Positions 4,700-63,499 of a DNA stretch of 64,000 nucleotides are shown here, piece after piece. How positions within the stretch are numbered: position 1 is the stretch's first letter; each line of letters opens with the position of its first letter. Source of the stretch: Antedon mediterranea (Eukaryota > Animalia > Echinodermata). Both the position numbers and the translations under genes were made by a program. The stretch is from positions 23,361,175 to 23,425,174 of the forward strand of contig NC_092677.1 in assembly GCF_964355755.1 (NCBI RefSeq). Direction: 5' to 3'. The notes beneath the pieces were generated by a model that was given only the letters and a program-made list of their open reading frames with translations, was not told the DNA's origin and ran no database searches.

Positions 4700-5560
4700 T
4701 AAATGATGGTGTTGATAATGGTAATGAATCTTGATAATGGTGGCGTTGGTAGTGATGATAATATTGATAATGGTAATGTTGGTAGTGATAATGATCTTAA
4801 TAATGGTGGTGTGATGTGTTAATGATAACCATGATATTGAAAGACTGTGTCGGTAGTGATGATCTTGATAATGGTAATGTTGGTACTGATGATGATCTTG
4901 ATAATGGTAATGTTGGTACTGATGATGATCGTGATAATGGTGACGGTAGTGATGATGATCTTGATAATGGTGGTGTCGGTAGTGATGATGATCTTGATAA
5001 TTGTAATGTTGGTAGTGATGATGATCTTGATAATGGCAATGTTGGTAGTGAAGATGATCTTGATAATGGTAGTGTTGGTAATTATGATGATCTTGATAAT
5101 AGTGGTGTCTGTAGTAATGATGATCTTGATAATGGTGGTGTCGGTAGTGATGATGATCTTGATAATGGTAATGTTGGTAGTGATGATGATCTTGATAATG
5201 GTGGTGTCGGTAGTGATGATGATGATCTTGATAATGGCAATGTTAGTATTGATGATGATCTTGATAATGGTGGCGTCGGTAGTGATGATGATCTTGATAA
5301 TGGTAATGTCGGTAGTGATGACGATCTTGATAATGGTGTTGTTTTGTGTTAATGATAACCATGATAATGAAAGATTGTGTCGGTAGTGATGATCTTGATA
5401 ATGGTAATGTTGGTACTGATGATGATCTTGATAATGGTGGTGTTGGTAGCGATGAGGATCTTGATAATGGTGGTGTCGGTAGTGATGATGATCTTGATAA
5501 TGGTGATGTTGGTAGTGATGATCTTGATAATGGTATTATTTGTGATGTTGAAAATCTTGA
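4700..5560. repeat. 33-bp minisatellite (gatgatgatcttgataatggtaatgttggtagt)n in the AP1G1 5' intron
   Basis: Direct tandem copies, plus a larger duplicated block (tgttaatgataaccatgata..gaaaga.tgtgtcggtagt at ~4817 and ~5347). Confidence 0.92.
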
Positions 5561-38900: not shown

Positions 38901-41900
38901 GCTTCAAATACATTCTTTACTTCCATAATACTTACTTGAATCAAGTAACGCCTGTTTATAAACTTGCCTCTACCCCACACCCAAGTATTTTAAAGCTTCA
39001 AATACATTCTTTACTTCCATAATACTTACTTGAATCAAGTAACGCCTGTTTATAAACTTGCCTCTACCCCACACCCAAGTATTTTAAAGCTTCAAATACA
39101 TTCTTTACTTCCATAATACTTACTTGAATCAAGTAACGCCTGTTTATAAACTTGCCTCTACCCCACACCCAAGTATTTTAAAGCTTCAAATACATTCTTT
39201 ACTTCCATAATACTTACTTGAATCAAGTAACGCCTGTTTATAAACTTGCCTCTACCCCACACCCAAGTATTTTCATTCAACAGATTTTTCATTTTTACCA
39301 TAACCCTAAATAAATAAAATGATAAAAAAAAAAACAGATAAAAATAAAAATAGCAAAACTACTTTTATCATTTTTAGTTAATTAAGACAGTAACACTCAC
39401 ACTTTGACTAGGATGCAACGCAAGGAAGTACGCGGTGCAACGTAAGTGAGTTGACCAATCACAAGCGACCATTCGGACGATCTACAGTAACATGTCGTGA
39501 TTGGTCAAATGACTTTTTTTGCTTATACACTTGGACACAAAAAACCAGGTGGTAGGATAGGACTTAAAGCTCACATTTTAAATTTTATATCTGGTTAATT
39601 CTATATAAATCAAATATTTGTAACAGAAATTAAGATGAAAAAACATGAATTTCCCTAAAAATGGTCAAATAGAAAATTTGGCAAAATTCTATAAAAACCA
39701 GCAAGACTTGTTTTCAGTAGTAGTAATAAAATGTCTGGTGACTCCCTAGAAGGTGAAAAAAGATAGTGGCTTTATGGTGGATAATTTTTGCTATAGCATA
39801 AAAATAAACCACTGAAGTTGAAAAAAAATACCAGAAACGTAAAAATCAAGTTATATTACCTATATTTAGTCATCTGATAACATATTTTACCACACCGTTT
39901 ATTTTTCATAGTTTTTAAAAATGTATCTCTATTTACAATTGTAATTTGAAGTATCACTCCACTGATAAGAAAGTGCTTATTTTCAACAAGCTTGTGTATC
40001 ATAAATAAAATCCCAAAAATTATGAAACATAGAGGACACTATAGATCGATAATTATTGGAATGTATGATCAATATGATCCTTAATGCTGCACCTGGTATT
40101 TAAGATTTGTCACTTACTCAGTCTCTTTGTCTTTGCCTTCTTGAGCAGCACCACTAATAAGCACAATCTCAAAGCTTCTATGTTTGTTCAATTCTTCACT
40201 AACCGCATTCACTTCATTTACCATTGGCAACAGCTCAAGGATCTGGTCTTGTACACGTTGTTGTTCTTTAAATTTATTCAATAAAATCAATTCATTATAT
40301 TTATTCATTTATTTATTCAATTCATATACATTATTTAGGACCACAATGGAAATAAGTTTGCCGTCTCAGTACTTTTTTGTGTATTTATCCTATTGATTTT
40401 TATATCAGAATAAAGAAATAAAATATATATTACTGATATGAAAATTATAACCTTAATTTTTTCTAAAATGTTGATAAGAAACATCACTTTGTGCTACCCG
40501 GGACAATAATTACCTAGATAAAAATTACTGTTTGCGATCATGAACGCTAGTAAACCAAACCCAGTACCGCTTTGATTCGAGAAATTACTTCAAGACATGA
40601 CAAAGCGTGGAGAACAATAAATGTGATTTTTTTCTACTGCTATGTAGGCACCTTAACTTTTAAACCATCATTCTCATATTGGTACATGACAATAACTAAT
40701 ATTAAAGTAAATGCAATGTTAATCTTGGTCATAAAACAATTTTTTGTAATAATTAATCAGACTTATATAGCGCCAGTATCCATAATGTTATGTTCAGAGG
40801 CGTTTGCAAAAGTTAAACAGGAAACGCTTCTGTGTACAAGTGAGTTTTAAAATTTGAAGATATTGACATTTTCTGATGTCTTTATGTCTATAGGTAATAT
40901 CCATAAAATGGGTTCTTCACACGAAAATGCACGATGGCCATACGACTTATAATAATAAAATACATACCTTTGCTGAGGCCACTACCAGCAGTTTGGTAAC
41001 CTTTAGCGTGGGCAATCTCTTTCTGTGCAAATTCCCAATCAATTGTTGCTGGTGTTCCCTCTGGAACATCAGCCTTTGCTGGGTTATGATAAACATACAT
41101 ATGATTTGAACCTAATGTCAACAAAAACAAATAAAAGAAAAAAAAAACAATTAAGATTTACATTAATTTCTTATTCTCAAACCTCACAATTTCAGATATA
41201 AGATTTGTTTGAATCTTAAATGTGTAAAAGAAATCACAATAAAATGAAGAATATTACAAAAATCTATTATAAATAGTCAGACCTGATGTTACAATATCTA
41301 GAGACTCCCCCAGAAAAATTGTTTTTAAAAAGTTAAATATTTTTTTCTCCTCTAAATTTGAATTAGATAAATGTATTATTTTGTTAGGAATGGAAGGACA
41401 CTAAAGATCTGTCTGTGTAAGATCAACGATTATTTATCGCGTCGAAGAAGAAGAGAATTTTGAGAAAACAGGAAGGGCAATGATAAGAAAGAAAGAAAGA
41501 AAGAAGAGGAAAGAAAAGGAGGAACACAAAGGAGCTCTAGGTCTGAGTGAAAGAATCATGGAAGTCATTATGTGGAGTAGCTTGAGATGGATATGACATA
41601 TTCTAAGAAAAGATGAAGATGAACCAGTAAAGAGAGCTTGCCATTTGGAAGTTAGAGGATGGCCAAAGGTGATGTGGAAAGATATGGTAAAGAAAGAATA
41701 AAGGAGAGTTGGTTTGAAGGAACATGATGCGCCAGACAGAAAAAAGTGGAGAGATGGTGTAGGAACTTGGTGACAGTGACAGCCAGTAACTTCTTGGAAG
41801 AGGGAGATGATGATGTTGCATAAGAAGAATGTAACAAATGTGTTATTTACCAAATAGAATTCTATCTAAATTTTCCAAAACCTTGCTGTTGACCAATGGT

Positions 41901-44900
41901 ATACCATTCACTTTGATCTTAGCTCCTGGACTTCCAGGCTTGATTTCAACTTCACCATCACTGTTTGAAACTATTGCATGTTTCTTCTGGATGCTAAAAC
42001 AAGGAAACAGACATATGCCATTTTTAAACTTAAAATGTATGAAAATGATTCCCTGAGGTTGAAAAAGCTCCCAAATTCTTAACCAGTAAAATCAATTCAC
42101 ATGCACTTTAACGAACCCAGTTCATCAATTAAGATGAGTATGAGTAGGTGGGGGGGGGGGGGGTGTCGTGTTTACCCCAGTCAGCTGGTTCACAAAATAG
42201 CCCCTGTGTCACGGATATCTGATAGGGCAGTGATTATTTTTACTATTGGTAAACCTTGGCCTAAAGACATAAAATAAAATGAAAATAAACACATTCGGTA
42301 TACTAGACTTTTCAGAAAACCTGAAATCCCAGCCCAAGGGTGTTCGGTATTGGGAAAGTTGACTGGACTCCCAAATACCTTATTAAATCAACAAACAAGA
42401 GTCAAATACAGTATTTTGAATATATTTTTTATTTCTTGCTACCTAAATATACCACATTTGTTATAAACATTTTTTTTAAGATTAAAAAAGTTGTAGTTCC
42501 AAAAAAAAATATTTAAAATACATTACCTCAAACCATTAAGTGTAATAGTTGGTTGAGGGTCAGCATCTTTACGTCCGAACGTTGTTTCACTAGAGCCAAG
42601 GAAATGACAAACAACTCCTGACAATTGTGGATCTTCATTTAGGTTCAATAAATGTGGTTCTTTCTTCTTTCTACTTGCGGTCAAATCTCTTTCATTATTT
42701 TCACTTACATCCTCAGCCCTTTGTTGTTCAAGCTTTTACAAAATAAATAATATATCTTTCATGTTTATATAATAACAATCTCCGTTAACAGTAAGTCTGT
42801 TCAGGCTACAATCGACTTTCTTACTTCTTATTACAAACCTTACTCAATGATGTCATTGCTACATTTTTACATTTCTGTTTAAACTGAAGGTTTTGTGAAT
42901 AGAAAACTTAGTAGCAAAGGTATTTTAAGTTAACAATTTATAATAGCACCCTTTGCAAAAAAACAACCTATGTTTCATATAAGTTTCGTATATCGCGTCG
43001 TTTCATATAAAAACGTATACGAAAGACAGGAAGTAAAACAGGAAGTTAATTGCAGTATACGGCCGTATACGATCAGTATACGCTCGTATATGACCCACAT
43101 ACGGCTCGTATATGACCCGTATACGGCCGTATATTACTCGTATACGGCTCCTATATGATCCGTATACGACTCGTGTACGAGACGTATACGACTACTTGAC
43201 CACAAAACCTCCATTAACTGTCTAATCTAAACAAATTCCCGAATTAATTACAATTGTATGAAACGGAGTATTATCACTTGTTGCAATTAAGACCGAAACA
43301 ACAACGACAATACGCCGATCGGCTGCTTACGCAAAGCAAGGATTTCCCTTTTTAAAGTTCTTTAGAAACACCACGAGTCGTCGCTCAAGCGGGAAGAGTA
43401 GGCCTAGTCTAGCCTACTACATGAACACTGTAGGCTTACTAATGCATTGACGTCAAACAAAAAATTACGTAAGGGCAAAATTCGCTAAATCGTTTTATAA
43501 ACGTTTTACTCAAAAGGTACATAAAGCAGGGAGTTGTAAAATTATTTATTATTATTTTACAACTCCCTGCATAAAGTTACTTTCAGTAGTGATTTTAACC
43601 ACCTAATTTATATATTAATTAAATTCATTTGTTATACAGAACCTGTATTAAGGGTACACATTCGGAATCCAAACAAATTGAGTAAATTTCCCTAGTAAAT
43701 TAATATAATTAGGCCTATTTGGTATTTTTTGTTTGTATAGAGGTTTCCCAGAAGGAGGGGTTATACTGTAATTAGTTATTTAGGTTAAATAATTTGCTCC
43801 GAACATTTTAAAACATACACAGTACGGTACTGGATTCTGTTCTTAAGAACATTTACAAAGAACGATTGAGCGTCGAAACTATAAATAGACGATGGAGAAT
43901 AATTATACGATACGATGAATCAATACATGAACCAACTGAACTTCTAAATATAGTGTTCGGTTAATCGTACAAAAGGATGCCGACCTCTAACCCGGCCCTC
44001 CGTGTTGTTATCTCGGCGCGTTTGAAGCTGATCGACTCGAATTTTTTTTAACCTAACAATAATTGTAACAAGTTTGTACAGTAATGGTTCATAAACACAA
44101 CATCGATCAAAACAGTACTGGTTTATACTATGGTTTAAACATAATAATAACCGAATTTACACAATGTATTACATTTTGAATGTAGTCCTACAGTGTTAGG
44201 TTAAATTCTCTTTGTGGCTAATATAGGCCTACATTCAAACATTATTTGTTTGTTTCTTTAATTTAAATAACTGCATTTCCGCCTTGTATAGGCCCACACA
44301 TTAAATAGGGTGGGTTTAGTATTTTTTTTATTAATTTGTTTGTTAATTAGCATAACATAATGTATCATAAATTATCGTATGACGAATGTTGTTTAGATTT
44401 TTTATTTTTTCCTGAAAATAAATATAAATACATAGAATTGACCAGGCTTTTAGGCTTTCTGGTAAGGTAGAATGCAGAACAATTTCAATAATTTCAGCAG
44501 AAAAGAGGAAACACCGTAAACTTTGTAATTCTGTGCCGCGCTTGCAGACAGCACGGCATTTTAACAAAAACCTATTTAATTGAAGCAAAACAAAACAATG
44601 TACAGTACGTTGTTATTGTATGTCTTGTATTGTATATTGTATTGATCTTTAACAGCTTGGACGTGTTTGTCCACAAAAAACGTTTTCACTTTGTGTATCC
44701 GGTGATGATTTGACCACCAGAGAAACGTTCAAAGGAAAACAACACCTCACGCGGAAAGCACATCGGGGTGATAGGATTTCCCCATTTAGGCCTACACCAC
44801 TCGATCAAAACCGCAACACCGGCGTTCAACGCCCGTCTTTATTCAACAACTGTGCGTGGTTACACACCGTTGCGGTGATGTAAAAACTTCCAGGGTAGGC

Positions 44901-45565
44901 TTACTTCGGCCCTGTCCCCCAACCCTTCGGGGCGTTGAAGCAGCGCGAGTTAATCGAGTGACACAGTAGGCCTGTGATTTTTACCTAATAAAACCATATC
45001 AATTTTACTTTGAGTATGCCCTTCGTCTTAATATGGCCTTTTGCAATGCTATTCAAAAACCCTGAATACAGTTTAATGCAATCTCATCAATTACGTTAGT
45101 TAAAAGCAAGGAAAAGAGGCTACTAAAGTATCATCAGTACAACTTTTATAATAGGCCTATACATGATGTTATATTCTCCAAACATCATCACGCGATTTAA
45201 TATAGCCTTCTAATAATATATAATACAAAATAATAATGTGTTTTACGGTAGGTATTGTTAGGGTTTATTTAATTGATTTATCCAAAGGAAATTTACTGAC
45301 AAAAATGACAATACGAGTATCAGTGGATTAGTGATTGGTTTTGTAGATTAAGAGTAATCATGTATTTAAATTACATGTTGTACTTGTTATATTTGGAGAA
45401 GGAGAAGGAGGGGAATGAATGAGTTTTATTACATGTTACCGTATGTGTAGATTAAGTATGTTTTTGTCTATCTTGTGCTTTCATTTATTACCGTATATAT
45501 TTTTGTTGGACGCACCTTCAAAATGTGAAGTGTGCCACTGTTACAAAAGTAAAGTTCCGAAATAA

Positions 45566-45625
<60 letters not shown>

Positions 45626-48600
45626 TAACCATCCCGCAACTGACTTTAGTTACTGGAGAGTAAAGAATGGTTATAATCCAACTAATTACCTATTTTCCCC
45701 AAAAATGTCAAAGATCATCATTGTAATCTAATTTCATCTAAAGTAGTGAATACTTTGGTATTCATAACATTTAGAACAAAGTATTCTTCTCGAAATCATT
45801 TCCGAAATTAATAGATTATTAGAGTTTATTTCGGAATACCTTTGAAGATCAACATTGGCGGTTAGAGTCTAAGAACGCGTTGAAGCAAATCTAACTGTCA
45901 GTTGTTTATATGCCCAAGCAAAATCAGAAAGGGCTTTTGATGTGCATTATATAAACACGGCATTGCTCTCATTCACTCATTGCATTATTTATTACAAATC
46001 ACAAACAACCTTTGCCTGAACAAAAATGAGCACTCGTGAAAATAGTCAGGAGAATGGGCCGTGGATTGATGTTATGAAAGCGAAATATGGGAATCAACCC
46101 TTATACGCAGGGTCACAGATTTCCACGGTAGACAGCCTGAGTTTGCTGATGGCATATTGCCTTGAGCACAACGCAACAGAACGTAATATATCTAATATTT
46201 TAGATATAATACAACTTCATTTGCCAAAGGAATCAACAATTCCAAAACATCTAAGGTCGTACTACTACCTAAAACAAGATTACGACATAGGGAAAAAAGA
46301 AACAATTAACAAACATCCCATATGTAGTCATTGCGGCTATCTGTCGGAAGATGGGATGGATGCAACAAGTTGTTCTATGTGCAAGAGGTTGGGTACATTT
46401 ACCAACGAATCTTATTTTATCACATTGGACATCAAAAGCCAACTAGAAGAATTATTTAAAGGTAAGTTTGAATTTCTTTCGTCTTGCCTTTATACTCGTT
46501 AATATTTACTACACGTGTATAATATACAGTATTAGGGCAATTTAAGGAGTATGAATTGTAAATAAAACTGAAATTGTAAACCGCAAATTCTTGATGAGCG
46601 AGGATGAACTAATAATATGTATTTTTGTACTATACTTAGGCCTACAAAACTCCGAACGTTCACTTTCTAAAAATTTATTTTGATCATGTCACTTATTGCC
46701 AATTGTTTGCACGCACCCTTTGTGAAATTGAATAGTTATATAGTAGGATTGCCATATAATGTGGGGCTTTTGGTTAATATTTGTCTTCTTTTTACCCAGA
46801 TCCTGCCGTGGTAAAGGGATTGTCTGTCAATAAAACATCGGAAGATGGGGTAATTCGGGACATTTATGATGGAGAAATATATAAACGCCGAAATACTTCA
46901 ACGGACACATTGTTGCTAACATTAACTTGGCATTTTGACGGTGTGAGTGTATCCAAAAGTTCGAAGCAGTCGATTTGGCCTCTTCATGCGGTCATAAATG
47001 AACTGCCACCAAAAAGAAGGTAGATTTTTGTGGGCTTTTTTATTCACTCACTCTCCCCTTTACCGCTGGACCACTGTTCCTCATGTAACCGCATTTTAAA
47101 ACTTAGATTAACTATTTTGATGTTTAATGTTACAGGTTCAATAAGAATCGTATTCTTATGTTTGGCCTATGGTCTGGAGACAGTAAGCCTCAAATGCCAT
47201 CGTTCATGATACCATTGACGCCCATTATTAACGATCTGTATAACAATGGTAAGAAATATAATTTGTTGTAATGTTTACGTTTCTTTCTCTTAATTTACGA
47301 GTTTGCGCCAGTGTTGGTCAAACATTGTATTTGTAACGTGTTGTTCCAATAATCAAAATATTAGAAAGCAGAAAAGGTGTTCGTTTACCACGGACTAACA
47401 CTTTATAGGCCTACTGTATTAATTAGGTTAGTGGCCGGAACTAAACACCGTAGCGTAGGGATGATTTCCGGACACCATGTTATTTATTTAAGCCTATTAA
47501 ATTCCTAGAAATGCATATCGGTCCGTGGAGATCGGTCCATGAACTATTTTCCACTATTATATGTTCGCGCAACTCAAAAGCGTCAGCTTATACGCATGCG
47601 TATTCATTTTCCAATTTCCAAATCCCACTCTTAGGAGGCATGCGTCGTGTAAGCTGAGCTGAGGTGGTGAGGTGATGATTCGCGCAGCGCAAACAAATTC
47701 GCCTTTCCGATTTTTCGGAACATGAATACGCAATACTGTAGTATAAAACCTTGCGCCTACATTGCTGGTTTGCTTATCGTTTCCAGCAAATTTTGTCAAA
47801 TCGTATAACATATGACCGGAGTGGGGGTTTGGGGTGTAGACTTCCTCCAAGTGTTAGAACGAAGACGACTAACAGATAACATTAATAATAATAGTTAGGC
47901 TAGACTAGAGGCCCTCCATCGGCCCTACTTTGTCTCTACGTTCTGAACTAGGCCTACACTCTTTTTGGCCCTAGACTAGTCACTAGTGGTGGTGTATGTA
48001 AGCTAGTGTTTTAGTGCGACTAGGCCTATGTTAGACAAGTAACTAACTAAAGTAATAATTAATATAGTATAACCTAGCTAGGCCTAGGCCTAGATATAGA
48101 GACAGCATAAAACAAAGAAGGTGGTATAAAATTACAAATATCTATGATTATTTAGTATAGTAGCATGTATTTTGAAGTTGATTCTTTTTAGTGGTTTAAC
48201 ACAGTGTAAACTATAGGTAGGGATACCGAGAGCTGACTCCATTTTCATTACCACGATTAAACAGCGCGCACGTTACTATGCGCGCAATGTCATTGACGCG
48301 GTGTTTTTTTACTTTGGTAAACACTTTTTATTAGGTAATTGTTCTGAAAATAAATAAATTATAAATATATCCTTTTGAGTATATATTTATTTACCTATTA
48401 TTCTATAAGATCAAGTATTTTTTATTTCCATTTCATTCAACCAAAAATGTGAATATAGTGGTTAAAAGATCGTTATCGCCTAGCGCGTATAGCTTTTGTT
48501 TACTACGAAACCCTCGGAAGGCTCAATGACCTACCATTTCAACCTTATTTTTGTAGTTGAGCCTCTTATGACCTCAAAATGTTTTTTATTCCTACACCAA

Positions 48601-51600
48601 GATAATATAGTTCCACATACCATGTGCTTGTTACTAAGAAAAATATTAATTTTAACTGCTAAAAAAACAATTTTATCCCGATATGAGGCCTTTATGATTC
48701 GAATATTTCATAGTAACAACCCATATACCATAAAAAATATCCGTTTAGTCCATTTTTTAAATAATTTTTGAAAAATTCCGAGGGGCTCAACTACAAAAAC
48801 GCCATTTTATGGTATGATGTCATCGCAAGCCAATCAAACCTCCGCTCCGCAAGTCCCACGGTTGAACGATTTTGGATTCTCGCCCTTTGATTGGTTGACG
48901 CCATTCAACACACAGCGGAATAATTTTCTCGCGAGTGCCGTGAAGTCACATGGTGTCAGGCCTGTCCAATTACACAGGAAAATAATGCATTGAAATTCTT
49001 CGAACGAGGTTAAATAAACACTCTTTTTTATACAATAAATAAGTAATATCATATTTTATTGAATTTTACAATGTTGATATATAAAATATGTTACTTAAAA
49101 TCGTGATTTTATATAATTATTTTTACGAAAAATGACTAGTTCATACAATTGTCGACTGAGGGCGCAATTTGTTTATATCGTTCGTGGCTAAAAACGATCA
49201 TTTTCGGCGATGTTTTAAACCCTATATTTCGAAAAGTACAAGTCATATTTTCATAATTCTTTCTTTATTATAATATTGATACAAAATACTAACAGGCAAT
49301 GTATAATTTGTTTGAAAAATATTAACTTTTAATTTTACATCGTTATCCCTACTATAGGCCTAGGTTATGTAAATTTATGACATTTTATGACATGACAACT
49401 TTTAAATTAACAATTTATTAAACAATTGTTAACATTTTAAACATTTTTTTCAAACTTCACAATTTGCTTGATGAGTTTGCCAGTTAAATTTAAAACATTA
49501 TAATTTATCGTAACATTTAAAATACACTGTAATTGACCGCTTCATTGGTTCCTTTATTACTCAAAATAAACCATTGAATTGTGGTTTGAGAGTGATTACA
49601 ACAGCTAAAATTGTTTATTTGCCTTTTTAATTATGTCTGCTGCCTTTGTCTTGATTTTCTTTGTAACACTTTGTATGGCTAATTGTTTATATCTCATTTA
49701 TATACTGTACTTATGCATAGTACTGTAGTTATAATTGTTGTCTGCCTTTGGAATTATTGTTCATTCCTAATGATGCTCAAAAAATAAAGATCAAAATGTT
49801 GAATCATGGCTTCCCCGTATTATTTAATATTTTTATTAATCAGTTTTAGATATTAACATGATTTCCCACATGATCAATAATATAGCTTAATTATCTCAAT
49901 AGTAATAGTTTATGATTAATTTTTGTATTATTCTCCTTTGTTTTAAAATATTTCAAATGAGTGACTGACACATACATGTACCTATAGACTCCCATTAGTC
50001 ATAAGTTTAACCAAAATGATAAAAGTTTAGTAATGCTGCCATCAGATTCTTAAAAACGTCATCTTGAATCTACTGTTTTATTTTGTGTTTTATGTTATAG
50101 ATATTTTATATTGTCAATTGTTTATTTTAAATAGGAATAAGCATCGGTGGACGTGAAGTTAAGGTTTTATTCCATGTAGGGACCATGGATTTGTTGGCCA
50201 TGTGTTTGACCAAAAACATGCAACAGTTTAATGGCAAACATGGCTGTGGAATGTGTGAAGTGTCTTCTGTCCGCGTACCTAAAGGAAAGGGAAGCGTATC
50301 TGTATATCCATGGATTCCTGCCAAACCCAAACTGCGTACTGCCAATGACATGATGGAGCAGGCAAAAGAAGCCATGCAAACTAAAGACTGTGTAAGTAGA
50401 CCAATAGTTTTTTTATAGAAAAGTAGTTTAGGTAGGGTTTGTTTTTTGGCAGTTATTTAAACAATTAAATTTACCTTTATTTTTATTTTATTTCCTAGGT
50501 CAAAGGAATAAAGGGATATACTATGCTATCCAAGATAACATATATCGACCCAGCTACAGACATTGTAGTCGATTACCTTCATGGTGTTTGTTCTGGCTTG
50601 ATGAAGAGCATGCTAAAAGTGTTGTTATTTGATCGCAGCAAACCGTGCTACATTGGTGATCAGATGACCGAGCTGGATGCGCGTTTGTGTGCAATCAAAC
50701 CTACTGACTGTATTACTAGAACACCAAGGTCGATTGGAGAAAATTTTGCAGATATCAAAGGTTAGGCCGAACTATTGACTTTATTTTATTATACATATTG
50801 CAGTTTTTAATCTTGTGTAAACTAAAAAAAAAAAAACTCTTCTATTTTTTCAAGGGATAAGCTAAAGCTGTTCCTGTGTTGGGTTTAAGGAACACGAAAA
50901 TAAGAAAGTATATATTATGTGTACTGTATTGTTTTTTATTAATTTTGATGTATAACGATATTAATTGATTATATTTTCAGCGGCTGAATTTCGTGCCTTC
51001 CTCATATATTATGGATGTGCCGTTTTTAAGGGTATCTTGCCAGAAGAGTATTATGTCCATTTTTGTTTGCTTTCATCTTCAATTTATATTTTAATGCAAG
51101 AAGAAATTACCCAAAATGAATTGGCAGTGGCAGAGACCAACTTACAAAAGTTTTATTACTTGTTCACTGACCTGTACGGTAAGTATTTTTAAGAGAATTG
51201 AAGAAACTATCTAGTGTTATTAAAACAAACAAAAAACAGTCCTATTTAGTAATGTTTAACAACTTTTCACATCATTGTATGGTTTTAAATTTAATAAAAA
51301 CAATATTTCTCACATCAATACTGATGTTAGAAACATGTAGTAATAGATCAATATGCCTCTTTTGTTTTTGCAGGTAAAGAAAATTGTACCATAAATTTGC
51401 ACAACACCTGTATGCATCTTGTGGATTGCGTAAGAAATGCAGGCCCTTTGTGGGCATTTGGGTGTTTTGCATTTGAAAGCAATTGCGGACAGATGGCCAA
51501 ATTTGTACGTGGCACTCGACATTGTGGGATGCAGGTAAAGCAATTGTTTCAGATTTATTTTTTTAAAATGTATATATAATATAACTTGCACTGATGAAGG

Positions 51601-54600
51601 GCTAGTGTTGGCCAAAAGCTTAGCTAATTTTAATGGATATTTATTTTTTATCTCCATTGAGATCCAGCCACAGCATTGAAATTTGTTCGATAATTTGCCT
51701 TTGAAATAACTAAGCTTTCACTTTTCAGAAATTGTGCCTCCTTCATAATATTTCATTCATTTTATTTATATATATATTTTTATTATTATTTGTTACTACC
51801 TCATTTTTCTTTAACTATGAACATTGTGCTGTATTTATATATTATGAAGGAAATAAATATTATGAAATGAAAATATAAAAATAAACAATTGTCTAATTTA
51901 AAAATCATTTTATCATATTTTTGTAGGTTGTAAACAATTACAAATATTTACAACGAGTTAAAACACTGGCAACTGAATCCAGAAGTCCTAGAGTTAAACA
52001 GCTCATTGGGAAAATGACTGGAGAAAAAACAATGTGAGTAACTTTTTTTTACATTATCACTTACAGTAATTCCTGTAATAACCATGTAATTCAGCAGTTA
52101 TGCTGCTAATTGGTTTTTTTTGTGTTATCAATAAATAACAATTAAAACCATGAATGTGTAAACATTGTTTCTGTATTAAAAGCTATAGCTCTTTGTTTAG
52201 CACAGGGCCTATTGTTAATTCGAACTTTGACTCTTCATTTTGTCAATGTTATCTTGTTGAAGCATTAAATCACTTAATAGACTTAATTTCTATTTATCTT
52301 ATCTGCCTTAGCTTTAAAACGCTGCATATTTAATATTTTTTTTAAATAGATTCTACACAGCAATTGTATACTTTCAGATTTATTTTTAAAAATGTATATA
52401 TAATATAACTTGCACTGTAAGGGCTAGTGTTGCCCGATAGCTCTGCTAAATTTCTGCCTGTTTTAATTATCGTTTTGATTTAGCTTTTCGCTTTTTTTTG
52501 TATCTCCATTGAGATCCAGCCACTGATACCCACAGCATTGTCATTTTTTCAGTAATTTGCCTTTGGATTTATAATATAACTTGCACTGATGAAGGGCTAG
52601 TGTTTTCAGAAATTGTGCCTCCTTCATAATATTTCAAACATTTTATTTATATCCAAAGACAAATTACTGAAAAAATGACAATGCTCTGGGTATCAGGGGT
52701 TGGATCTCAATGGAGATACAAAAAAAAAGGGAAAAGCTAAATCAAAACGATAAAGTAAAACCGCAAGAAAAGTTAGCAGAGCTTTCGGGCAACACTAGCC
52801 CTTCATTTATATGTATATTTTTATTATTATTTGTTACTACCTTATTTTTCTTTAACTATGAACTTTGTACTGTATTATTTATATATTATATGTTATGAAA
52901 GAAATAAATAATATGAAATGAAAATATAAAAATAAACAATTATCTAATGCTGCTAATTGGTTTTTTGTTATCAATAAATAACAATTAAAACCATGAAATG
53001 CGTAAACATTGTTTCTGTATTAAAAGCTATAGCTCTTTGTTTAGCACAGGGCCTATTGTTAATTCGAACTTTGACCCTTCATTTTGTCAATGTTATCTTT
53101 TTAAAGCATTAAATCACTTAATTTCTATTTATCTTATTTGCCAATTTTTTGTTGTTGTACCATTTTTTTTGTCAAGGTTCTGTTACACTGTTTTTATTTA
53201 TGTACCAAAAAATGATACCTGAAATTCATGCCTTCTGCTTTATATTAGCTTTAAAACGCTGCATGTTTAATTTTTTTTAATAGAGATTCTATACAGCATG
53301 TTGGTAGTAAACGACTGAATGAGGATTCTATGGACACAAAAATGGTCACTTCCTTCTTTAACTGCAAAGTTCAAAATGTTTCAAGATATTCAAAGTTGGA
53401 AAGAAAGTTTGACACAATTTACTCCGAAGATTGCAATAAGATAAAAAAAAGGATTGCCAATGTTGTCCAGTTCCGTGATGAAGAAGATGTAAAAATCGCA
53501 AGAATTAAATACTTTTTAGATGCCGATGGTAAAAATGTGGCTGTTGCGCGTGTGGCAACCATAACGTGTGAGAATGTTTATAAAGAAGGAAACAATGCGC
53601 TTTGGGTAAAAGCCAACATATGCGAAGACACTGGAAATTATGCAAAACGCATACAATTTGAAAGGTAAAATCAATTTTATCAAATCCATACAATAATGTG
53701 AACTCATTGAGCAAATTTAAACATAATATTACTAGTTAGATAAATAGCAATTCATTGTTCTTGCAGTAAATAAATTATTGTGTTTAAGTGAATGCATATG
53801 TACATTTAAGTACACCGAAAGCAAACATGAATTGTACAATTTTCATTCGATTTAATCTATAAACAGAAAGGAAAAAAATGTCAATATTTTCCATGTTTTT
53901 TTAGCACAATATAAAGATGTTTAAATATCCACATTCTTTACACTACTGTAATGTGCTTAAGCAAATTTAAACTTAATTACAAGTTAGATGAATAGAAATT
54001 CATTGTTTTTGCAGTAAATAAATTATTGTACAATTTCCATTTGGTTTGATCAATAAACAGTTGAATAACAAAAAAATTGTTAATATTTTAACACAAAATA
54101 ACGATTTTTTTTTTTTTTTTTTTTCATTTTTTAGTATTGAACTTCACATTATAAGAGTTGAAAATATCCTGAAGAAGGTTGTGTATATGGAAACTGATTT
54201 AGATGGAGGCATAGCTATTCCTATTGCTTGTAGGTGGGAACACGACTGATCTCTGTGATGGTTGCTGTTGTTCAGTCAGCGGTGTCCTATAAAATGATTG
54301 CTGTGGTTGGTTCGCATTGTTAGACCTTTGATGGTTTTCGGCAGCATGATTGTTATATTGCCACGAAGGTTCTTCCCGAGGCTGCTGTTGTTCCAAACTA
54401 GTGAAATGAAGATGAAGAAGTCAAAATGTCATATCAAATCAAAAGGTTCTTTTCAGAACCACAAAATTACAGAAAGAGATTTGAATTTGCAATTTTTATC
54501 CACGTATGGCTTAAAATAAAACACAACCACATATTGTTCTTCCATTGAAAACCCTAGATTCACTATATTCCATCTACAGAACTAATTTAAAATATCGATA

Positions 54601-57600
54601 TACCTTAGTGATTTTTGTCTAATCCTAACCATTTCTTGCCTTTTCTTGGAAATGACTTCACGGATGCTTGTCCTCGGTGTGTTTGGAAAAAGCTTTCTGG
54701 TAAAATCTATGCCAAATAAATCAAAATGTGTTAATTGCATTCAAAAACTGCACAATGTCATAACAAAACCCCATAGTAAGTGTGCGGAACAGTTTGCATT
54801 TCAAAGTGATTCTTAATAAAAAACACACATTTTTCACAAAAAAATATTAGAGATGGGAAATGCATTCAAATTAATTCTGATAACATTTTTAAACAGTGTA
54901 AAATTTGTCTCCCCTGTATAACACAGTTTAAATTACCTGTAATAGCACCCAGTCGGATTGGGTCTAAAACTTGGCGCTGGAGGCCATCTCGATTCTTGGT
55001 GGCAGAGAAAGAGCAACGATACATCTCATCTGAATCGAAAAAATGGTTCACTAAAATTCTTGTGCACTTCGAAAAAGTTGAGCTTGATCTGCATTCAGAT
55101 TGAATGTGTTCCGGAATTTTCTGCAAAATTAAAATATGGTTGTCAGTTAATAAGTTATTCCACCTTCTTAAAACAAAATTACCACAATGACAGTAATTTT
55201 TAAATACTGAATAGAATTGTATGGCTTACAAATCAACACATACTGATAATAGTTAGTGCAAAACTTACTTTTAAGAAATCATCTATCTCTTTCTGCTGTC
55301 GAGATTTCTGAGGAGGGCCTGGGGTGCGATTTTCTATCTGTAAAATAATTTCATATACTGTGCTATCTCAAATATTTTGAAATCTTTTTATTAATCATAC
55401 AATCGGAATATAATACAAATCGGAGATTTTTTTTGGTAACAAAATACTTGTTCTCATATAAAATAACAACTTTAAATTTTGGTGGCCAAAATGTCAATAG
55501 TTTGAATGAAATTACCTTGGCATGCAAACTACTTATTTGTTCCTTCATCACCTTGTTGTCCTCCACAAGAAAGTTGACCTGGGTGCAGAGTTCCTTTACG
55601 GTTCGTAAAAGTGTGCTGTGCTCATTTGTGGATACTGGTGTTGTAAATGGAGAATTTGTTGATTGCTGCAAAGGTTTGTATGGTGTTGGTCGTAATGGTG
55701 CATTTGATGATGAAGGTAAAGGTGGAGATGAAGGTAAAGGTGGAGATGGTGATCGTCCAGATGACATTGATGTTGAAGTTGATGGTGCTGGCGACAGTTC
55801 TTGTGGAGGCTCTTGTGAAGGCGAGGGTTCTTGTGAAGGTGATATTTCTCTAAAAGGTGATGGTTCTCGGGAAGGGGAAGATGCTTGTGCTTGTGGTGAC
55901 TGTGATTTGGTGGCATTTGTTTGAAACAGCTTTCCACACATTGCAAAAGCAGTGCCTGCAACATCATCTCTTCTTTCTAAAATAAACATATAAAAATGCC
56001 TGAAGAGTTTTTTTTTAAATTAATTAAAATATATTTACTCATAAAATACAATAGAGTAATAAGATCAGAACATACCTTTTCTTTGTAATGCTACTGCTGC
56101 AAACAAATAAATAAAATATATATTCATTATAATAATATATTTGTGAATATTTTGGTGTAGAAAATACATACGACACATGACTGTAGAGGAATTGATATTG
56201 ATTATATTGTTCCATAGTATATTATATACAATTTATATAAAACTTACTCATATTTTTTGTCTTCTTTTCTTTGTTTTTGTCTGAAATTTTAGATAAATTT
56301 TGAAGTACCTTGGTTATTTTTTATTTACAGTATTCTGTCCTACTTATTTACAAGCTTGTCTTTTTCAAGAATTCAAATATTTTAAAACATTCAAGAAAGG
56401 TTTATAAATTCATTTAGCTTGGCATAATTAAGACAATAAAATAACATAGAAAAATACATCAAATTGCAAGTTGACTGTTCCAACTTAAACAATCTATAAT
56501 TTTACATTGCATATCTAACCTCATTTTGCGTTGCATTACTTAAAAGTTTGCCATAAGAATAAAAAAAGGATATTGTAAATTACTTAAAATTAATTGATAT
56601 CTTACCTTCCTTTTTCTTCGCTTTTCTCTTCTTTGATTTTTCTTCTGTGGACTCTAAAGAGTAAATTAAGAAATTGTTATCAAATGGAGGAAAACAAAAT
56701 ATGATTCACTTTAGCTAACCTTTCAGGGTATTTTATTTACATGTATAATGTATGTTATTCAATAATCACCAACTATCGGTGTCAGTGATCTATTAAATCA
56801 TCCAGCTAAGGTGTACTGTATGTTTTGTTGTATTGTATATTTACAGTAGGTTTTATCATATTGCTAAAAGATTAAGGCTACTAATTTAAATAATAGATTT
56901 TAAACCCATTTTTAATATTCTGAGAATGTTTTAACTTTTTTAAGATTTTATTTACTGTTTTTTGGCTGTTTCCCAATCATCAGCATTGCTAATTTAGGGC
57001 GCTTTCTCTATATAATCTATTATATAATCACTTTCCACTCGGGAAGTGAGCCTTTCACTTCCTTTGTTCTAGCATGCATCAATAGCCTTTTATATTTTTG
57101 CAACTGTGTTCTTAATTACTAATAACTTAATTACGTTTTAGTAAGTGGTTTTCGACTTAAAACGTAAATATTGAGTACTTTGCGTGCGGAGTGAGCAACA
57201 ATGGGCTGGGGCATTTTAGCCATACAAAAATCTTGCTGTAAATATCCTAAAGTGGTCGCTAATGAATTGCCATGATCAGTGGCGTATCCAGTAGGGGGAC
57301 GGGGGGGGGCGGCCTCCCCCCCCCCCCTGATTTCGTTTCCGTCGGCACATCATCGCGGCCGTCGGCAAACAAAGGTGCCGGGGAAAAAATTAAACTATTT
57401 ATTCTGACAATAATTGAACTGTAAACATAATTCTTTTGAGTGTTTGTTTATTTACATATCATATCATCATTGATCCCTTCAGATCAACTATTTTTTAATT
57501 TCATTACATCTAACGAAACACGTAAAAAATGTGTAGCACGTACGTACGCGGTAGATTGTTTACTCAAAAGTCTTTGACCTTTACCCTAAAACCTTGTTTT

Positions 57601-60600
57601 TGCATGCAGTTGAGCCTCTCATGACCTGGGATTTGTATGTCTTCCTACGCTAAGAGATTATATAGTTCCACATGCCATGTGCTTTTTTGTCTATATTTAT
57701 TATAAGTGCAAAAAACCCGGTTTTTTTTCTCGATATGAGGCCTTTATTATTCAAAATTTTTAAAGAAAAAGCACATATATCATAAAAAATATCCATGTAT
57801 TTCATTTTTGGAACAGAATATTCCGTGAGGCTCAACTACAAAACCACCATTTTGTGATATGATGTCATCGTAAGCCAATCAAAGCTGAGCTTTTTCGCGA
57901 TTGGCATTGCTCACGGTTGAATGATTTAAGATTCTAGCTGATTTGATTGGTGGATGCGAATCACCCGCAGCGGAATGTTTTCTCTCGCGCGTGTACCATG
58001 AATCTCTCTGATCGTTACTACACAAAGTTAGAGCAATGAATTTGTCCGAATTCCGTTAAGTAAACAACTTTATATATTTTATAAGCATTTAATAACATGT
58101 TTTATTGATATTTCCAATGGTGATATATAAAATAAATTACTAAAAAACGTAATTATATGTAATTATTTTAACCAAAAATGGCGTAGTTAATAGAATTGTC
58201 GACTGAGGCCGCAAATTGTTTTACTTCTTTCGTGGCTAAAAACGATCATTTTCGGCGATGTTTTAGACCCTATATTTCGAAAACTACAAATCAGATTTTC
58301 CTAATTCTTTCTTTATTGTAATATGAATACAACATACTAACAGATAATGTTGGTTTGGTTTTAATTTTGCATCGTTATCCCCGGATATAAGACAATATGA
58401 CTATATGTAATCCTTGATCAGAGACGTCGTGTATGTACACCAATTTTGTCGGCAAATTGGCAATTCCCGCCCCGCCCCCCCCCCCCCCCCCCACTTCAAA
58501 ATCCTGGATACGCCACCGGCCATGACTAAATATAACTTAAAAAATCCAAAGGATAAATTGAAAAATATACGCGACCGGCAAACGTAGTACCAAACGCACG
58601 GACAAACTGTATTCGTAAATAAAAATAAATTTGTTAAACCAATTTAAACGTCGAGCCTTTGTAACTTTTGTTCTATATTCGCGATACTATTCGCACGACA
58701 GGCTTTATACTGGGCATTAATTAGACTTGTAAACAACCCAACGAAAGTGACCGAAATTCGAACAAAGGGGCATCGCCAAACAAGAGTGCGTACCTAGTAA
58801 ATACTGTACACGCTTTGGTGCCTGTAACTTGATACAGCCCAGATCGACGCTTGAACCGCAAGAAAATGAGTCCGTGAGTTAAAGACGTTCACCTCCCTGT
58901 TTTACTATTGGTTAAAAGAACCATGTAGGCTGGTAATATTTTTGGACAAAATTATAAAAATCGTTTTTTTTTTTTAAATAATGATTCTTCACGACTACAT
59001 TTATAGTATAAATAATAATATATAACATAATAAAGTGTATGTGTGATCATTTTTATCACAATTTGAGAGGAAAATGCAATAAAATTAATTTATATATTTT
59101 AAAAGTATAGAACATTATGCGAGTATTTATATTATAATACAATATAATACATATATCAACAAAAATACGTAATTGCAATTAATTTTTCCGCGGTCGATAG
59201 CCGGCATGCATTAATCACAATCGCAATTACTACAAAATCCTACGTTGGATCATGGAGGTATTATACCTCCATGGTTGGATGGACACAACGCAATGACATG
59301 ATAATATTTGCATCGCTTAGGCCTAACCTATCTGACGGTACATTATAATTAGGACATTCGCATTAAACGCAAAATACGATTGTTTTGCTGATTCCTATCG
59401 CGCTAAGGGAGTGTCATTTCCGGCCAATTATATGCGTGAAATATAAACAGCAATAAATTTACCTTCATTTTTCTTGTCTTTTCTCTTCTTTGATTTTCCT
59501 CCTACAGACCCTAAAGAGTAAATTGTAAAAAATGTTTCAAATGAAGAAAATTGTTTGTATAAGTATTAATTATGTACAGTTTAGTGTGTATGAAATAATA
59601 CTAGAGCAATAATTAATTATGCCATACCTTTCGTTGTTGCAACTTCCGGGGCAACTTGTGTTTCTGTAGACCCTCAATTGTAAAAACAAGACATCGTTAT
59701 TTATACTACAGTACAGACAAATATATTTTAATATATATTAAAGTTTGATCAACCAATATAGCCAACATTTTAATTCAGCTGGTCACTCGATTGCAAATGT
59801 CAGAGTTATTTGCAATAGACCACGATGTCAAATGGATCGATAAAACTCGCAAAGACACATAGTTTCATTTGTTATCTATGACGATCTATTGTATAAAAAA
59901 TAACTCGTGTAAACTTAATAAATCAGATTTAAACACGGAAAAATACGATTTCAATAACGTAGACATTTTTTTTACACCCTCCCCTCTCTAAAAAATTCCA
60001 GCATGACGAGCAAACAAAAAAGACTTAATCACACATCATCAGCAATTGATATTAATAATCGTAATGCTGGTGGTAATTTATATTTATAATCACAAGTTTA
60101 CCATCATTTCTGTTATGTATAAAAATGATTAATTTATTAAATATTACATACCACTGTCCAGATTCTTTTTAGTGTCTGAAAAAAACAACATAATTAAGAA
60201 AATTGAATAATAGATTTTATCATTAGTATAGATGTGATGGCCGTTAAAAAACGTGGCACACAATGCGCGAATAGCCCATTTTTAACCACTGGAGTTTTGT
60301 GATATGAAATAAAGTTGGCACCCTTTTTGTATTAGGAGTCATGGAATTAATTACTGCATGACGAAACATCCATCAGGGATGTGTTATTATTAAGTGATCC
60401 ATGCACGTCACAAAAAGAGCATGTGTACAGTACATTAAAAAGTAAGATAGATAGTATGCATATCAATATGACTTAATACAATAATACAATTTTAGAGTTT
60501 CACAATAAGTGCTATAAGTACATGAACAAAAAAGAATACGGGATGGGATTGATGGACAAAACTACTACATCAACATACCTCCAACTCTAACAATTTCGCC

Positions 60601-63352
60601 TTCCCAACCTCGGCTTGGCAAGATTACTCGCGTCCCGACTGCAAATGCGGCAACATTTAGTTTTAATTTTTCCGCAATTTCTGGTTTTAAATCTGTGATG
60701 GTATTATCGTCCCACTCGACGCGACACCATTCTGTAAAAAAAGTTAATCTTTATTATCAATCATTTCTTTAGTATGCTAACAGTTAATATTAATAATTAC
60801 TTGTAAGAAGTTATACAAATTCATTTCTGTACCAAACTTAAATACTAATATGATCATAGAACAGAGAATTGTGTAATAATACAATAATCTGCATTTACTA
60901 GTGACTATAAAATAGCCTAAATATGTGTCTATGTCGCATGACATAATAAATAATTAGAAAAAAAATGACTAATTAATTCACCATGCCTTAACTTGAACAA
61001 CATAATTATATAAGCAACAATGCAAACTAAACCTACTTTAAGAAATTATGTGCAATATTTATCAAATTCTGCCTATTTATAAAATATAAGTTAATTGAAA
61101 ATCCTGCCAAAAGTTTTACTTACTTTTTTCTCCAGGAAACGTCATTAGGCTAATTTCTATATCTCACCGTCAATGTGTTACATGTATTGCTTGAGCTGAA
61201 CGAATGTATAAAAAATGTACACATTTGACATATAACCAATCGTATGCAGCCCCGGCCCCGTTATTGATCGTAATAACAAAAAAGGAATTAGATCAATTGT
61301 TTAATATAAGAGGCACGCCTAACCTTTTGTTTAGTGCAGGCGTGGTTGAAAGCGCTTAGAAAAAAAACACAAAGAATGTTGCAACGATTACTGTACGATA
61401 CTCATGATTCATAGTCATATTCTTTTAAACGGTTCAACTTTATTTAGTAGCCATTTTTAATTACTTAAAATAAAAATGTGTTGTACAGTCAGTGAATCAT
61501 ATAACGCATAAAATCAGTTGATTGTGATCGTGAATTAAATGTTGGTATGTCCCTATCATTTATAATGTCTCTGAGCCTCCATACTAAATAATCGGGTTGT
61601 GGTTACTACCAGTGACGTTTATAGCTCCATGAAACCGAGAGTAGCTGTTTTCTGACTTGTACAAACTATAAACATTTTTTTTGGTATACTTTTTAACAAT
61701 AATATTTTATAGCCTATGTATAAAATATACGAACATTATTAATAGTACTTCATTCATATTTAAAAAACAAAACCACAATAAATATCCGAATCGTCCGCAA
61801 GCCCTCCACTAAACAGAGCCTCGAGATTCAAACATTCTTGGCTTGGCATGGTATCAACGCTACAAAGAAAGAAGTCAAATACGCGACATTTACCGAAGGC
61901 CGCGCATACACACTATTTTATTGTTTTTTTATAGTATTATTATCCGACCTGTAACAGTAGGCCTAAAAATAGCCTGAGTAAACAGAAGCCATGGTCAAAT
62001 TGGTAACTAGGCCTTACGCAATCAATAATTTTATTATGTCAATAAATATATCGCTACTTTTCATGTAGGAGGCCTAACTGTTGTGAAATCCATGGAAAAT
62101 TCCCTTTATGGTTTGAGCCGATCGACGCGGTGATCGTTGTTGCTGCTACCCACGTTACAAAGACAGCTGCCTTATATAAGGCCGTATACGCTCAAATACG
62201 GCCGTATAACAGCCCGTATACGCTCATATACGGCCGTATACTAGACGATATACGGCCGTATACTAGACGATATACGGCCGTATACTAGACGGTATACGGC
62301 CGGATATGGGCCGTATATGAGCCCATATACGCTCGTATAAAACAATAACGTTTTGTATACAACGTATACGAACGGATGTAGTATACTAACATATATGAAA
62401 CATAGGTTGTTTTTTTGCAAAGGGCAGTTATATATATTTTATTTATATTAGTATTGATGATATAAGTTTTTTTTCTTTTTTCTAATTTACAAACTTTCTC
62501 ATTTACAAACTACTTTCAAACTTTACTCAATGATGTCATTACTACATTTTTTCCATTTCATTTTAAACTTATAGATTTGTGAAGAAAAAAACCTTAGTAG
62601 CAAAGGTATTTTAAGTTTAAAGTGAAGAGTATTAAACAAAACTAAATTGTTACTTTTTGATCCCAGTCCATATCTGAAATAGCTTTTTGATTTGCCAGTA
62701 ACTGGGCTCTAATTTCCTCCTCCATTTCTTTCTTCATTTTGTCAATATCTTTTTAAATAAATGATTAAAAGAATATAAGAAAAGCAGTATGGTGTAATAC
62801 TAAAGTTCTGTCTACACTATCAAACTAGTTTGACAAAAAAGGTGTGATGTGCCCAAATATGGTATACCCAAATATACAATGACATCATCAAGTTCATATA
62901 TGGGCACATCACACTTATTTTGCCACACTAGTTTTATAGTGTAGATAGAGCTTAATGCGCATACTGTATAATCTTTGAAAATAGGGCATATAGTCTAGTG
63001 GTGATATGTCTGTCCACATACCAATAGAAAAAAGTCCATTTGGAATAATATTGATTTTGAATTAAATTTAAGGGGTAAATATTTTTATTCAACTCAAATA
63101 TATGTATGTTAATAAACAACAAAAATACCTTCTTGACTCATTCCTACATTTTCTGGCATCATTCCTCCTGTTAGTGATTTCTTTAGTTTGTCATTTTCTT
63201 CACGTAATTCACGGATAAGTTTATCCATAGGATTCTCATTGACTACAGCCTTATTCTTAATCTTCTTTGCTCTGTCAGCGTATCGCAATGTACCAAGTGT
63301 CTCATCATAGTTGATATCAGCAGGTGACAAGGCTGCTATCATCACAGTTTTA
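26970..63352 (-). CDS. KIF28: Kinesin-3 family KIF28/KLP-6-like protein, from the end of the motor domain to the C-terminus; gene begins beyond the right edge
   Basis: In-frame GT-AG exons 63352-63129 ([33 protein letters not shown]), 62748-62654, 42732-42527 and 41993-41851 (FHA: [28 protein letters not shown]), 41111-40968, 40265-40118, 39305-39218, 38482-38312 (DPFWEP), 37779-37657, 36993-36724, 36500-36327, 35538-35410, 33627-33574, 33194-32985, then last exon 31118-31059 or 27128-26970. The tail exons are less certain than the rest. Confidence 0.88.
27875..28219. mobile_element. TTAA-flanked MITE (Kolobok-like), copy 2
   Basis: ttaa|agatgtattgtccc ... gggacaatacatct|ttaa. Confidence 0.82.
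29094..29437. repeat. 38-bp G-rich minisatellite, ~9 copies
   Basis: (gaggaggcaagtaggagggttgggagaggatgggggct)n. Confidence 0.95.
31340..32705. mobile_element. PIF/Harbinger-type non-autonomous element
   Basis: tta|aggctggtttcctgtcgacgtaa ... ttacgtcgacaggaaaccagcct|tta; 3-bp TTA TSD. Confidence 0.88.
34340..34500 (+). mobile_element. Short L2/CR1 3'-tail remnant
   Basis: tggaat...tttaaatctctcctcaaaacacacctc...gcgctata...(tta)n. Confidence 0.55.
37173..37642. repeat. 36-bp minisatellite, ~13 copies, intronic
   Basis: (gtgatgaactgctagacatggtaacactaaaggtca)n. Confidence 0.95.
38836..39272. repeat. 94-bp tandem repeat (~4.6 copies) made from a kinesin exon 3' half plus its donor site
   Basis: Units start at 38836, 38930, 39024, 39118 and 39212. 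Confidence 0.95.
41575..41770 (+). mobile_element. Decayed RTE-clade LINE 3' fragment
   Basis: Interrupted LRW..HILRK...G.PKVMWKD...GL....A.DRKKWR motif. Confidence 0.65.
42080..42265 (+). mobile_element. SINE 3' part, opposite orientation to the other copies
   Basis: gcactttaacgaacccagttcatc...atctgatagggcagtgatt...tactattggtaaaccttggcc. Confidence 0.6.
42985..43192. repeat. Left subterminal repeat array (CGTATACG / TATACGGCCGTATA)
   Basis: Perfect palindrome GTATACGGCCGTATAC at 43055-43070 plus many half-sites. Confidence 0.9.
45567..45625. repeat. (TTA)n microsatellite after AATAAA, possibly a retroelement tail
   Basis: Seen directly. Confidence 0.85.
45948..45982 (+). promoter_or_regulatory. 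Putative TATA + initiator promoter of the transposase
   Basis: TATATAAA at 45948, TCATT about 30 nt downstream, ATG at 46026. Confidence 0.5.
46026..54249 (+). CDS. CMC/EnSpm DDE transposase (TnpD-like), ~749 aa, 10 exons
   Basis: Exons 46026-46461, 46800-47019, 47136-47248, 50135-50391, 50499-50760, 50981-51178, 51374-51534, 51927-52033, 53284-53664 and 54135-54249 total 2250 nt, all GT-AG with no internal stop. Motifs: CxxC..Cxx[60 protein letters not shown]. Confidence 0.93.
48218..49351. mobile_element. Nested MITE in transposase intron 3
   Basis: ctatagg|tagggataccga ... tcgttatcccta|ctatagg (7-bp duplication). The interior is homologous to ~57590-58381. Confidence 0.72.
54199..61145 (-). 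CDS. Transposon accessory protein with a C-terminal BEN domain, ~469 aa, 13 exons
   Basis: Exons 61145-61124, 60731-60579, 60175-60152, 59672-59628, 59510-59463, 56653-56606, 56280-56248, 56096-56076, 55976-55516, 55337-55269, 55120-54937, 54706-54604 and 54397-54199 total 1410 nt in frame. BEN-like [20 protein letters not shown]...[18 protein letters not shown]...[11 protein letters not shown] follows a Ser/Pro tract and a coiled coil. The domain call is by eye. Confidence 0.82.
57277..58518. mobile_element. Nested hAT-type non-autonomous element in a BEN-gene intron
   Basis: gccatgat|cagtggcgtatccag ... ctggatacgccaccg|gccatgac; 8-bp TSD with one mismatch. Confidence 0.85.
62180..62390. 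repeat. Right subterminal repeat array
   Basis: 22-bp unit tatacggccgtatactagacga, ~3 copies, plus variants. Confidence 0.9.
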
Positions 63353-63499
63353 CTAAAGAAAATAGAATTTATTTAGTTTGTATATCAAAGCAAAACTTGT
63401 CAAACTCATCATTATTTTTCATAATAGTAAAAATAAAATATTTTAATTCAATTTCAATCAACTCATGCCTCTAATTGCAGGTCAATCAATCAATTAGAC

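Follow-up and report, generated by a model that had tools for sequence, protein, structure and literature searches.

A young TRC-type CACTA/EnSpm transposon with two genes, the second probably encoding a BEN-type protein, in the feather star Antedon mediterranea

The Element and Its Ends

The DNA analysed here, referred to below as the window, is a stretch of 64,000 nucleotides of Antedon mediterranea contig NC_092677.1 (positions 23,361,175 to 23,425,174). It contains a DNA transposon that carries two convergent genes and sits inside a minus-strand intron of a kinesin-3-type gene. The boundaries and ends of the element are as follows.

42949..62424, no strand assigned: whole element, TRC-type CACTA/EnSpm (CMC) DNA transposon, 19,476 bp
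42947..42948, no strand assigned: left copy of the CA target duplication (2 bp); contigs of the empty site match as far as 42948 and thereafter leave the element
62425..62426, no strand assigned: right copy of the CA target duplication (2 bp), from sequence comparison
42949..42981, plus strand: left terminal inverted repeat, 33 bp, starting with CCC
62392..62424, minus strand: right terminal inverted repeat, the same as the left at 33/33 bp
42984..43193, no strand assigned: left subterminal array of GTATAC-type units flanked by CpG, spaced mostly 10-12 bp or twice that
62180..62373, no strand assigned: right subterminal array of the same GTATAC-type units, spaced mostly 10-12 bp or about double

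Read as reverse complement, the last 33 bases of the element equal its first 33, a match of exactly 33 bp in the window sequence. CA directly flanks both ends. The initial annotation of this DNA had reported both the identical inverted repeats and the CA duplication, and both hold. A placement of the ends at CAC was ruled out, as the right end has no matching TG.

The subterminal arrays adjoin the inverted repeats; the distance to the predicted start codon is 2.8 kb for the left array and 1.0 kb for the right. Matches to CGTATA/TATACG occur 18 times in the 252 bp at the left end and 17 times in the 255 bp at the right end, whereas the other 63,493 bp of the window together have 12. Base shuffles (2000 per end) gave a mean of 0.16 matches on the left and 0.15 on the right, with maxima of 2 and 3, which bears out the arrays reported in the initial annotation. 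The observed/expected ratio of CpG is 1.8-2.0 at the element ends versus 0.42 in the adjacent host DNA. The presence of matching arrays at both ends implies a sequence-specific binder.

Insertion Site, Age and Copies

The intron that received the element is bounded by two exons of the host gene.

42527..42732, minus strand: exon of the kinesin-3-type gene downstream of the interrupted intron, from the gene model, Pfam and contigs
62654..62752, minus strand: exon of the kinesin-3-type gene upstream of the interrupted intron, outer boundary approximate

The host gene occupies 38216-42732 and 62654-63372 on the minus strand, and spliced host contigs are found in the contig set X5. It is identified as a kinesin-3 through its matches to the Pfam families Kinesin, Kinesin_assoc, FHA and KIF1B; the frame 63112-63372, adjoining the upstream host exon, matches Kinesin at E 1.5e-07. 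The host intron also holds an older direct duplication of approximately 104 bp (42831-42931 and 62514-62617), and the element landed between its two copies.

Without the element, the host intron measures 443 bp, the length predicted earlier (about 443 bp) for an empty intron, and this empty site was found in contigs of two runs. One contig of X1 and one of X2 pass 42948 and continue into 400 non-element letters. In the part realigned to the left flank, these contigs carry the right-flank letters at 8 of the 9 listed substitutions, the ninth being a matter of gap placement, and both listed insertions fit the right flank as well. The fit ends after a single CA. The empty site rules out a domesticated, fixed gene pair.

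Element contigs are deeper than host contigs by 7-14x in X1 and 4-8x in X2 and of similar depth in X5, contig depth being distinct from copy number and sample S1 being possibly the window's own source. In the gene regions, the differences between element contigs and the window amount to 0 in 1554 bp, 1 in 4240 and 1 in 2483. The empty site and these deeper, near-identical contigs support the proposed youth of the family and indicate that it is probably multi-copy. In both X1 and X2, the depth over the left 3 kb (43084-46079) is approximately 1.6x that of the transposase exons, and one contig in each run departs from the window at 46079; together these suggest internally deleted derivatives with a common left arm.

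Three further repeats lie within the introns of the element.

48210..49350, no strand assigned: 1.14-kb repeat nested in transposase intron 3, with ends of TAGGG and a direct repeat of 7-8 bp; X1 and X5 contigs pass over it
57277..58518, no strand assigned: hAT-like repeat nested in a second-gene intron, with CAGTGGCG ends and an 8-bp duplication that has one mismatch
52419..52805, no strand assigned: palindromic repeat of very high depth, within duplicated intron DNA of transposase intron 8

As the contigs of X1 and X5 pass over it, the 1.14-kb repeat probably arrived after this copy arose or is limited to a minority of copies. The repeat at 57277..58518, which we take to be of the hAT-like class, contains a 74% relative of it. 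Duplicated intron segments surround the palindromic repeat (51539-53298), and a summed contig depth of approximately 55,000 in X1 marks it as a very abundant small element. Having gathered nested insertions, the present copy of the element is not brand new. The initial annotation mentions neither these insertions nor the fact that the two genes, as predicted, overlap by 51 bp at their coding ends (54199-54249); on the side of the second gene, this overlap depends on a last exon that is a prediction only.

Outside the element, two inverted pairs of dispersed repeats (9392-9425/26091-26124 and 11047-11311/27960-28224) look like separate repeat copies and not the ends of one element. Minisatellites are present at 4702-5534 (33 bp period), 29093-29438 (38), 37158-37642 (36) and 38818-39273 (94).

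The Transposase Gene

46026..54249, plus strand: transposase gene, 749 aa, exons 46026-46461, 46800-47019, 47136-47248, 50135-50391, 50499-50760, 50981-51178, 51374-51534, 51927-52033, 53284-53664 and 54135-54249

The model of this gene has 10 exons, and all nine introns are GT-AG. The 749-aa frame has a single final stop and none internal, in agreement with the uninterrupted frame expected at the outset. An acceptor at 53286 was discarded because it gives 17 stops. A protein search with exon 4 yielded one match among 20 candidates, P0001, which is labelled Antedon mediterranea (feather star). P0001 equals the model over the first 429 residues, and the first four exon junctions agree. Beyond that point, this database protein (window 46026-50763) continues into intron 5 and terminates with 430 aa in all, lacking both the H(4)H motif and the catalytic E. 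Either a genuine short isoform or an error of annotation might account for it.

Thirty-four longer relatives align to the model at 25-35% identity, some of them up to residue 740, and exons 6-10 stay open and align with homologues to that same residue. D192, D275, D367-x-x-H370, C294-x-x-C297 and H505-x4-H510 are retained in 34/34 homologues and E530 in 33/34, so that the catalytic D/D/E and DxxH motifs claimed initially are found conserved among these relatives. D192, D275 and E530 are presumably the catalytic DDE triad. The model deviates from its relatives at 10 of the 75 columns that are conserved in at least 85% of them. That this copy encodes an intact transposase frame is supported.

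In a profile comparison of the single protein P0001, two matches were obtained, both of them under the Pfam cut-off (DUF1258, E 1.9e-05; Transposase_21, E 8.3e-05). Among the aligned transposase proteins, 29/35 match Transposase_21 and 26/35 match DUF1258 at E <= 0.001. Searched against the PDB, the transposase profile returned weak RING-finger matches only. None of the 10 joints listed in X5 is a spliced transposase joint, and exons 1-3 lie on unspliced X5 contigs, a kind of evidence that cannot show absence. One X5 contig (50624-50785) has 11 listed differences in approximately 160 bp of exon 5 and the following intron (at least 4 changed and 3 silent codons). This divergence is far above that elsewhere, and the contig perhaps stems from a diverged sister copy.

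A related transposase is found as an intronless frame of 922 codons on a 5.7-kb metagenome contig (locus L001, 2146-4914). A scan of 174 metagenome stretches gave two loci, this one included, both of them short, and the second protein was matched in neither.

The element ends in CCC..GGG, which is the TRC form, and not in the 5'-CA..TG-3' of most CMC transposons; the CACTA ends of plant En/Spm are likewise absent. Animal TRC elements are marked, in the available text of PMC1636069, by CCC ends, a 2-bp duplication and Transposase_21 similarity. At this locus, a CCC core stands in both inverted repeats, and the 2-bp CA duplication on both sides, within the 2-5 bp of CMC transposons, agrees with the departure of the empty-site contigs from the window after one CA. 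A Transposase_21-related domain is present, with the single-protein match on P0001 below the cut-off. These three features are consistent with the TRC branch. The C(2)C and H(3-4)H motifs that the available part of PMC12730594 gives as characteristic of the CMC group are present here as C294/C297 and H505/H510, each in 34/34 homologues.

Judged by sequence, the element thus fits the known animal TRC branch of CACTA/EnSpm, and the transposon class itself has already been described. The CACTA/EnSpm assignment of the initial annotation is sustained by the CCC ends, the duplication, the Transposase_21 similarity and the two motifs. It had left aside whether the family was known; the class is described as animal TRC in the part of PMC1636069 available, with CCC in place of CACTA ends.

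The Second Gene

54199..61145, minus strand: second gene, 469 aa, exons 61124-61145, 60579-60731, 60152-60175, 59628-59672, 59463-59510, 56606-56653, 56248-56280, 56076-56096, 55516-55976, 55269-55337, 54937-55120, 54604-54706 and 54199-54397
54604..55120, minus strand: BEN-like domain on two exons (54937-55120 and 54604-54706) with an intron between them, the junction seen in X5

The model of the second gene comprises 13 exons with 12/12 GT-AG introns and a stop-free frame of 469 aa; 24 acceptor combinations were tried, 6 of which are open. Contigs of X5 join 54706/54937, 55120/55269, 55337/55516, 55976/56076 and 59510/59628, and every one of these joints is a predicted intron. A 949-base X5 contig has the length expected with three further small exons, and the first three junctions and the last exon rest on prediction only. 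The same five joints have a depth of 0 in X1, which rules out a processed retrocopy as the origin of the spliced contigs. Spliced host contigs occur in X5 too, which makes RNA the likely source of the joined form; the RNA status of X5 itself is a guess, and the spliced transcript may stem from another copy. The second gene is therefore supported as a real spliced gene, and the multi-exon open frame first proposed for it is retained. Some of its small exons are duplicated, 56602-56693 and 59459-59550 being 79-83% alike. The ends, the duplication, the subterminal arrays and the two open frames are all confirmed as observations.

The second protein consists of a small beta-rich N-terminal part, a lysine-rich stretch (35% Lys+Arg), a Ser/Pro-rich linker (42% Ser+Pro), a predicted coiled coil judged by eye, and a BEN-like helical C-terminal domain at about residues 310-405. 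For the N-terminal exon, the best neighbour in the Atlas language-model search reached 0.78 with recognition under the threshold, and the predicted fold (pLDDT 58) had no structural match.

The case for a BEN domain comes mainly from two sources. When the single exon 54937-55120 was scanned, the Pfam BEN model (PF10523) aligned with it over positions 3-44 of its 76, up to the end of the exon; the score of 16.5 bits (E 0.0098) lies below the cut-off of 23.2. The second BEN-like exon, scanned by itself in Pfam, gave no family. Among the Atlas neighbours, 17/30 hits belong to the BEN set (best 0.93, recognition 2449), which by the calibration of the tool is a lead. The 10 best family-bearing hits all agree on BEN, and the best BEN cluster carries the family on only 31% of its members. 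Several low-scoring Pfam matches, among them TM250, Toxin_22, DUF2813 and BCD1, were taken as chance, and none of the six second-gene frames scanned matched a TnpA-type Pfam family.

The BEN domain has been described as five helices plus a middle loop (PMC10789644). A single-sequence fold of the first BEN exon, that is of half the domain with no alignment, consisted of two helices plus a beta hairpin, with a pLDDT of 91 and no BEN among 500 Foldseek rows and none of these at E <= 0.001. Phmmer of the half domain against the PDB returned 0 sequences at E <= 10, so no solved BEN chain was matched. A homologue search with the BEN exon gave 0/6 candidates, and the one hit among 1.84 billion representatives, which involved translated intron sequence and a repetitive protein, was rejected as spurious. 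The BEN identity given in the initial annotation thus gains a sub-threshold Pfam match and BEN neighbours in Atlas, and is weakened by the score below the cut-off and the half-domain fold without a BEN match. On balance, the second protein is probably of BEN type.

Relation to Known Systems

The closest animal counterparts are SmTRC1 of Schistosoma mansoni and the TRC elements of Aedes and Tribolium. As far as the available text of PMC1636069 describes them, they share with the present element the CCC ends, the 2-bp duplication, weak Transposase_21 similarity, spliced transcripts and internal tandem repeats. SmTRC1 (approximately 4.5 kb) is described there as producing its extra proteins, to which that text assigns no domain, by alternative splicing of one unit. 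In contrast, the second protein here has a gene of its own on the other strand and is BEN-like. The zebrafish CMC-EnSpm elements EnSpm-N49/N49B are active in an animal and share the CA duplication, but have CAC ends and a 15-bp repeat, are non-autonomous, and have no second gene described in the available part of PMC13189230.

Plant En/Spm, with TnpD and TnpA, belongs to the same DDE superfamily and, like the present element, has two proteins and motif arrays at both ends (PMC1636069; bioRxiv 10.64898/2026.08.24.746577, both as available in part). It differs in its CACTA ends and in TnpA, which attaches to DNA by way of two tandem helix-turn-helix motifs and is reported in those texts only from flowering plants. 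In maize, TnpA and TnpD are both required, and in Arabidopsis, TnpA binds motif clusters and causes demethylation at the element ends (same sources). Being BEN-like and having no TnpA-type Pfam match in the scanned exons, the second protein would be an analogue of TnpA and not a homologue.

The predicted layout of a coiled coil followed by one BEN-like domain resembles that of BEND5, and BANP and BEND3 bind unmethylated CpG motifs, BANP by oligomerising (available parts of PMC9233729, PMC10602864 and PMC11472053). The candidate sites at this locus also contain CpG. Unlike the second gene, BEND5, BANP and BEND3 are host genes outside any transposon.

Proposed Mechanism and Alternatives

DDE enzymes of the CACTA/EnSpm type cut at the inverted repeats and insert with a 2-base stagger. 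The reading that we favour, and hold to be somewhat better than even, is that of a young and intact two-gene TRC/EnSpm transposon whose likely BEN-type second protein binds the subterminal repeats and helps the transposase. The transposase would excise the element at its inverted repeats and reinsert it with the 2-base stagger. The second protein may oligomerise via its predicted coiled coil, settle on the units at both ends, which recur at intervals of about one helical turn, and, once bound, help to pair the ends or to recruit and load the transposase. By analogy with plant TnpA, we infer for it a helper role of this kind. It would likely also act, like plant TnpA, as a methylation-sensitive switch on the inward-facing promoters of the element, since CpG is part of the units and both genes are transcribed from the ends towards the interior.

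One alternative is that the second gene rides along as a passenger: a BEN gene captured from a host and dispensable to the element. Its small exons are duplicated (56602-56693 versus 59459-59550), and BEN genes are known to travel with other mobile DNA such as bracoviruses. However, the 13-exon frame has stayed open over 7 kb that include a nested insertion, the matching end arrays call for a specific binder, and no parent gene was found in the two homologue searches of the BEN exon, both of them weak; a passenger is thus considered improbable. An equally improbable reading restricts the second protein to transcriptional regulation, as an anti-silencer or repressor, and leaves the binding and pairing of the ends to the transposase alone. 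BEN proteins are described as transcription regulators, and in the available text of the 2026 preprint (bioRxiv 10.64898/2026.08.24.746577), TnpA acts on end methylation and the DNA-binding part of animal Spm elements is typically fused to the transposase. Against this, TnpA of maize is required for transposition as well as for regulation in the same partly available sources, and the arrays adjoin the inverted repeats and not the predicted start codons, from which they are 2.8 kb and 1.0 kb distant.

More improbable still is that the second protein has another helical DNA-binding fold resembling BEN, or that this copy has no full transposase and is moved by other copies. The sub-threshold Pfam score and the non-BEN model of the fragment would agree with the former. 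The database transposase model that stops at 430 aa and the divergent exon-5 segment in X5, with at least four changed and at least three silent codons among the rows shown, would agree with the latter. Yet Pfam and Atlas indicate the same family, BEN, and exons 6-10 of the transposase are open and alignable with homologues to residue 740.

Novelty and Implications

A full-text literature search, which reached few subscription papers and neither the original BEN paper nor Repbase or Dfam, listed no study in which BEN is paired with an EnSpm/CACTA element. The sole paper in which BEN domain, transposon and CACTA occur together handles them separately, and PMC10027918 contains 0 occurrences of BEN, CACTA, EnSpm or CMC. 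A preprint of 2026 that surveys 962 Spm-encoded protein models describes, in the text available, TnpA-like helpers only in flowering plants and a DNA-binding part that is typically fused to the transposase in animals (bioRxiv 10.64898/2026.08.24.746577). The word BEN is absent from the main text of this preprint, whose figures or supplements may list it among "other" domains.

It is tentatively put forward, as a possibility held at somewhat under even, that animal TRC/EnSpm elements use a two-protein system in which a separate BEN protein replaces TnpA, reads the phased CpG repeats and couples transposition to methylation. Such elements would then also form a mobile reservoir of BEN genes among animals. 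The idea of a separate helper is directly testable, since intact frames, an allele lacking the element and a defined candidate site for binding are all available in this family. If it is true, the two-protein design arose again in animals with a different fold. Orphan BEN genes would gain a function, and a route for their spread would be suggested. This polymorphic, young family of the feather star would offer a ready substrate for testing a two-protein BEN system.
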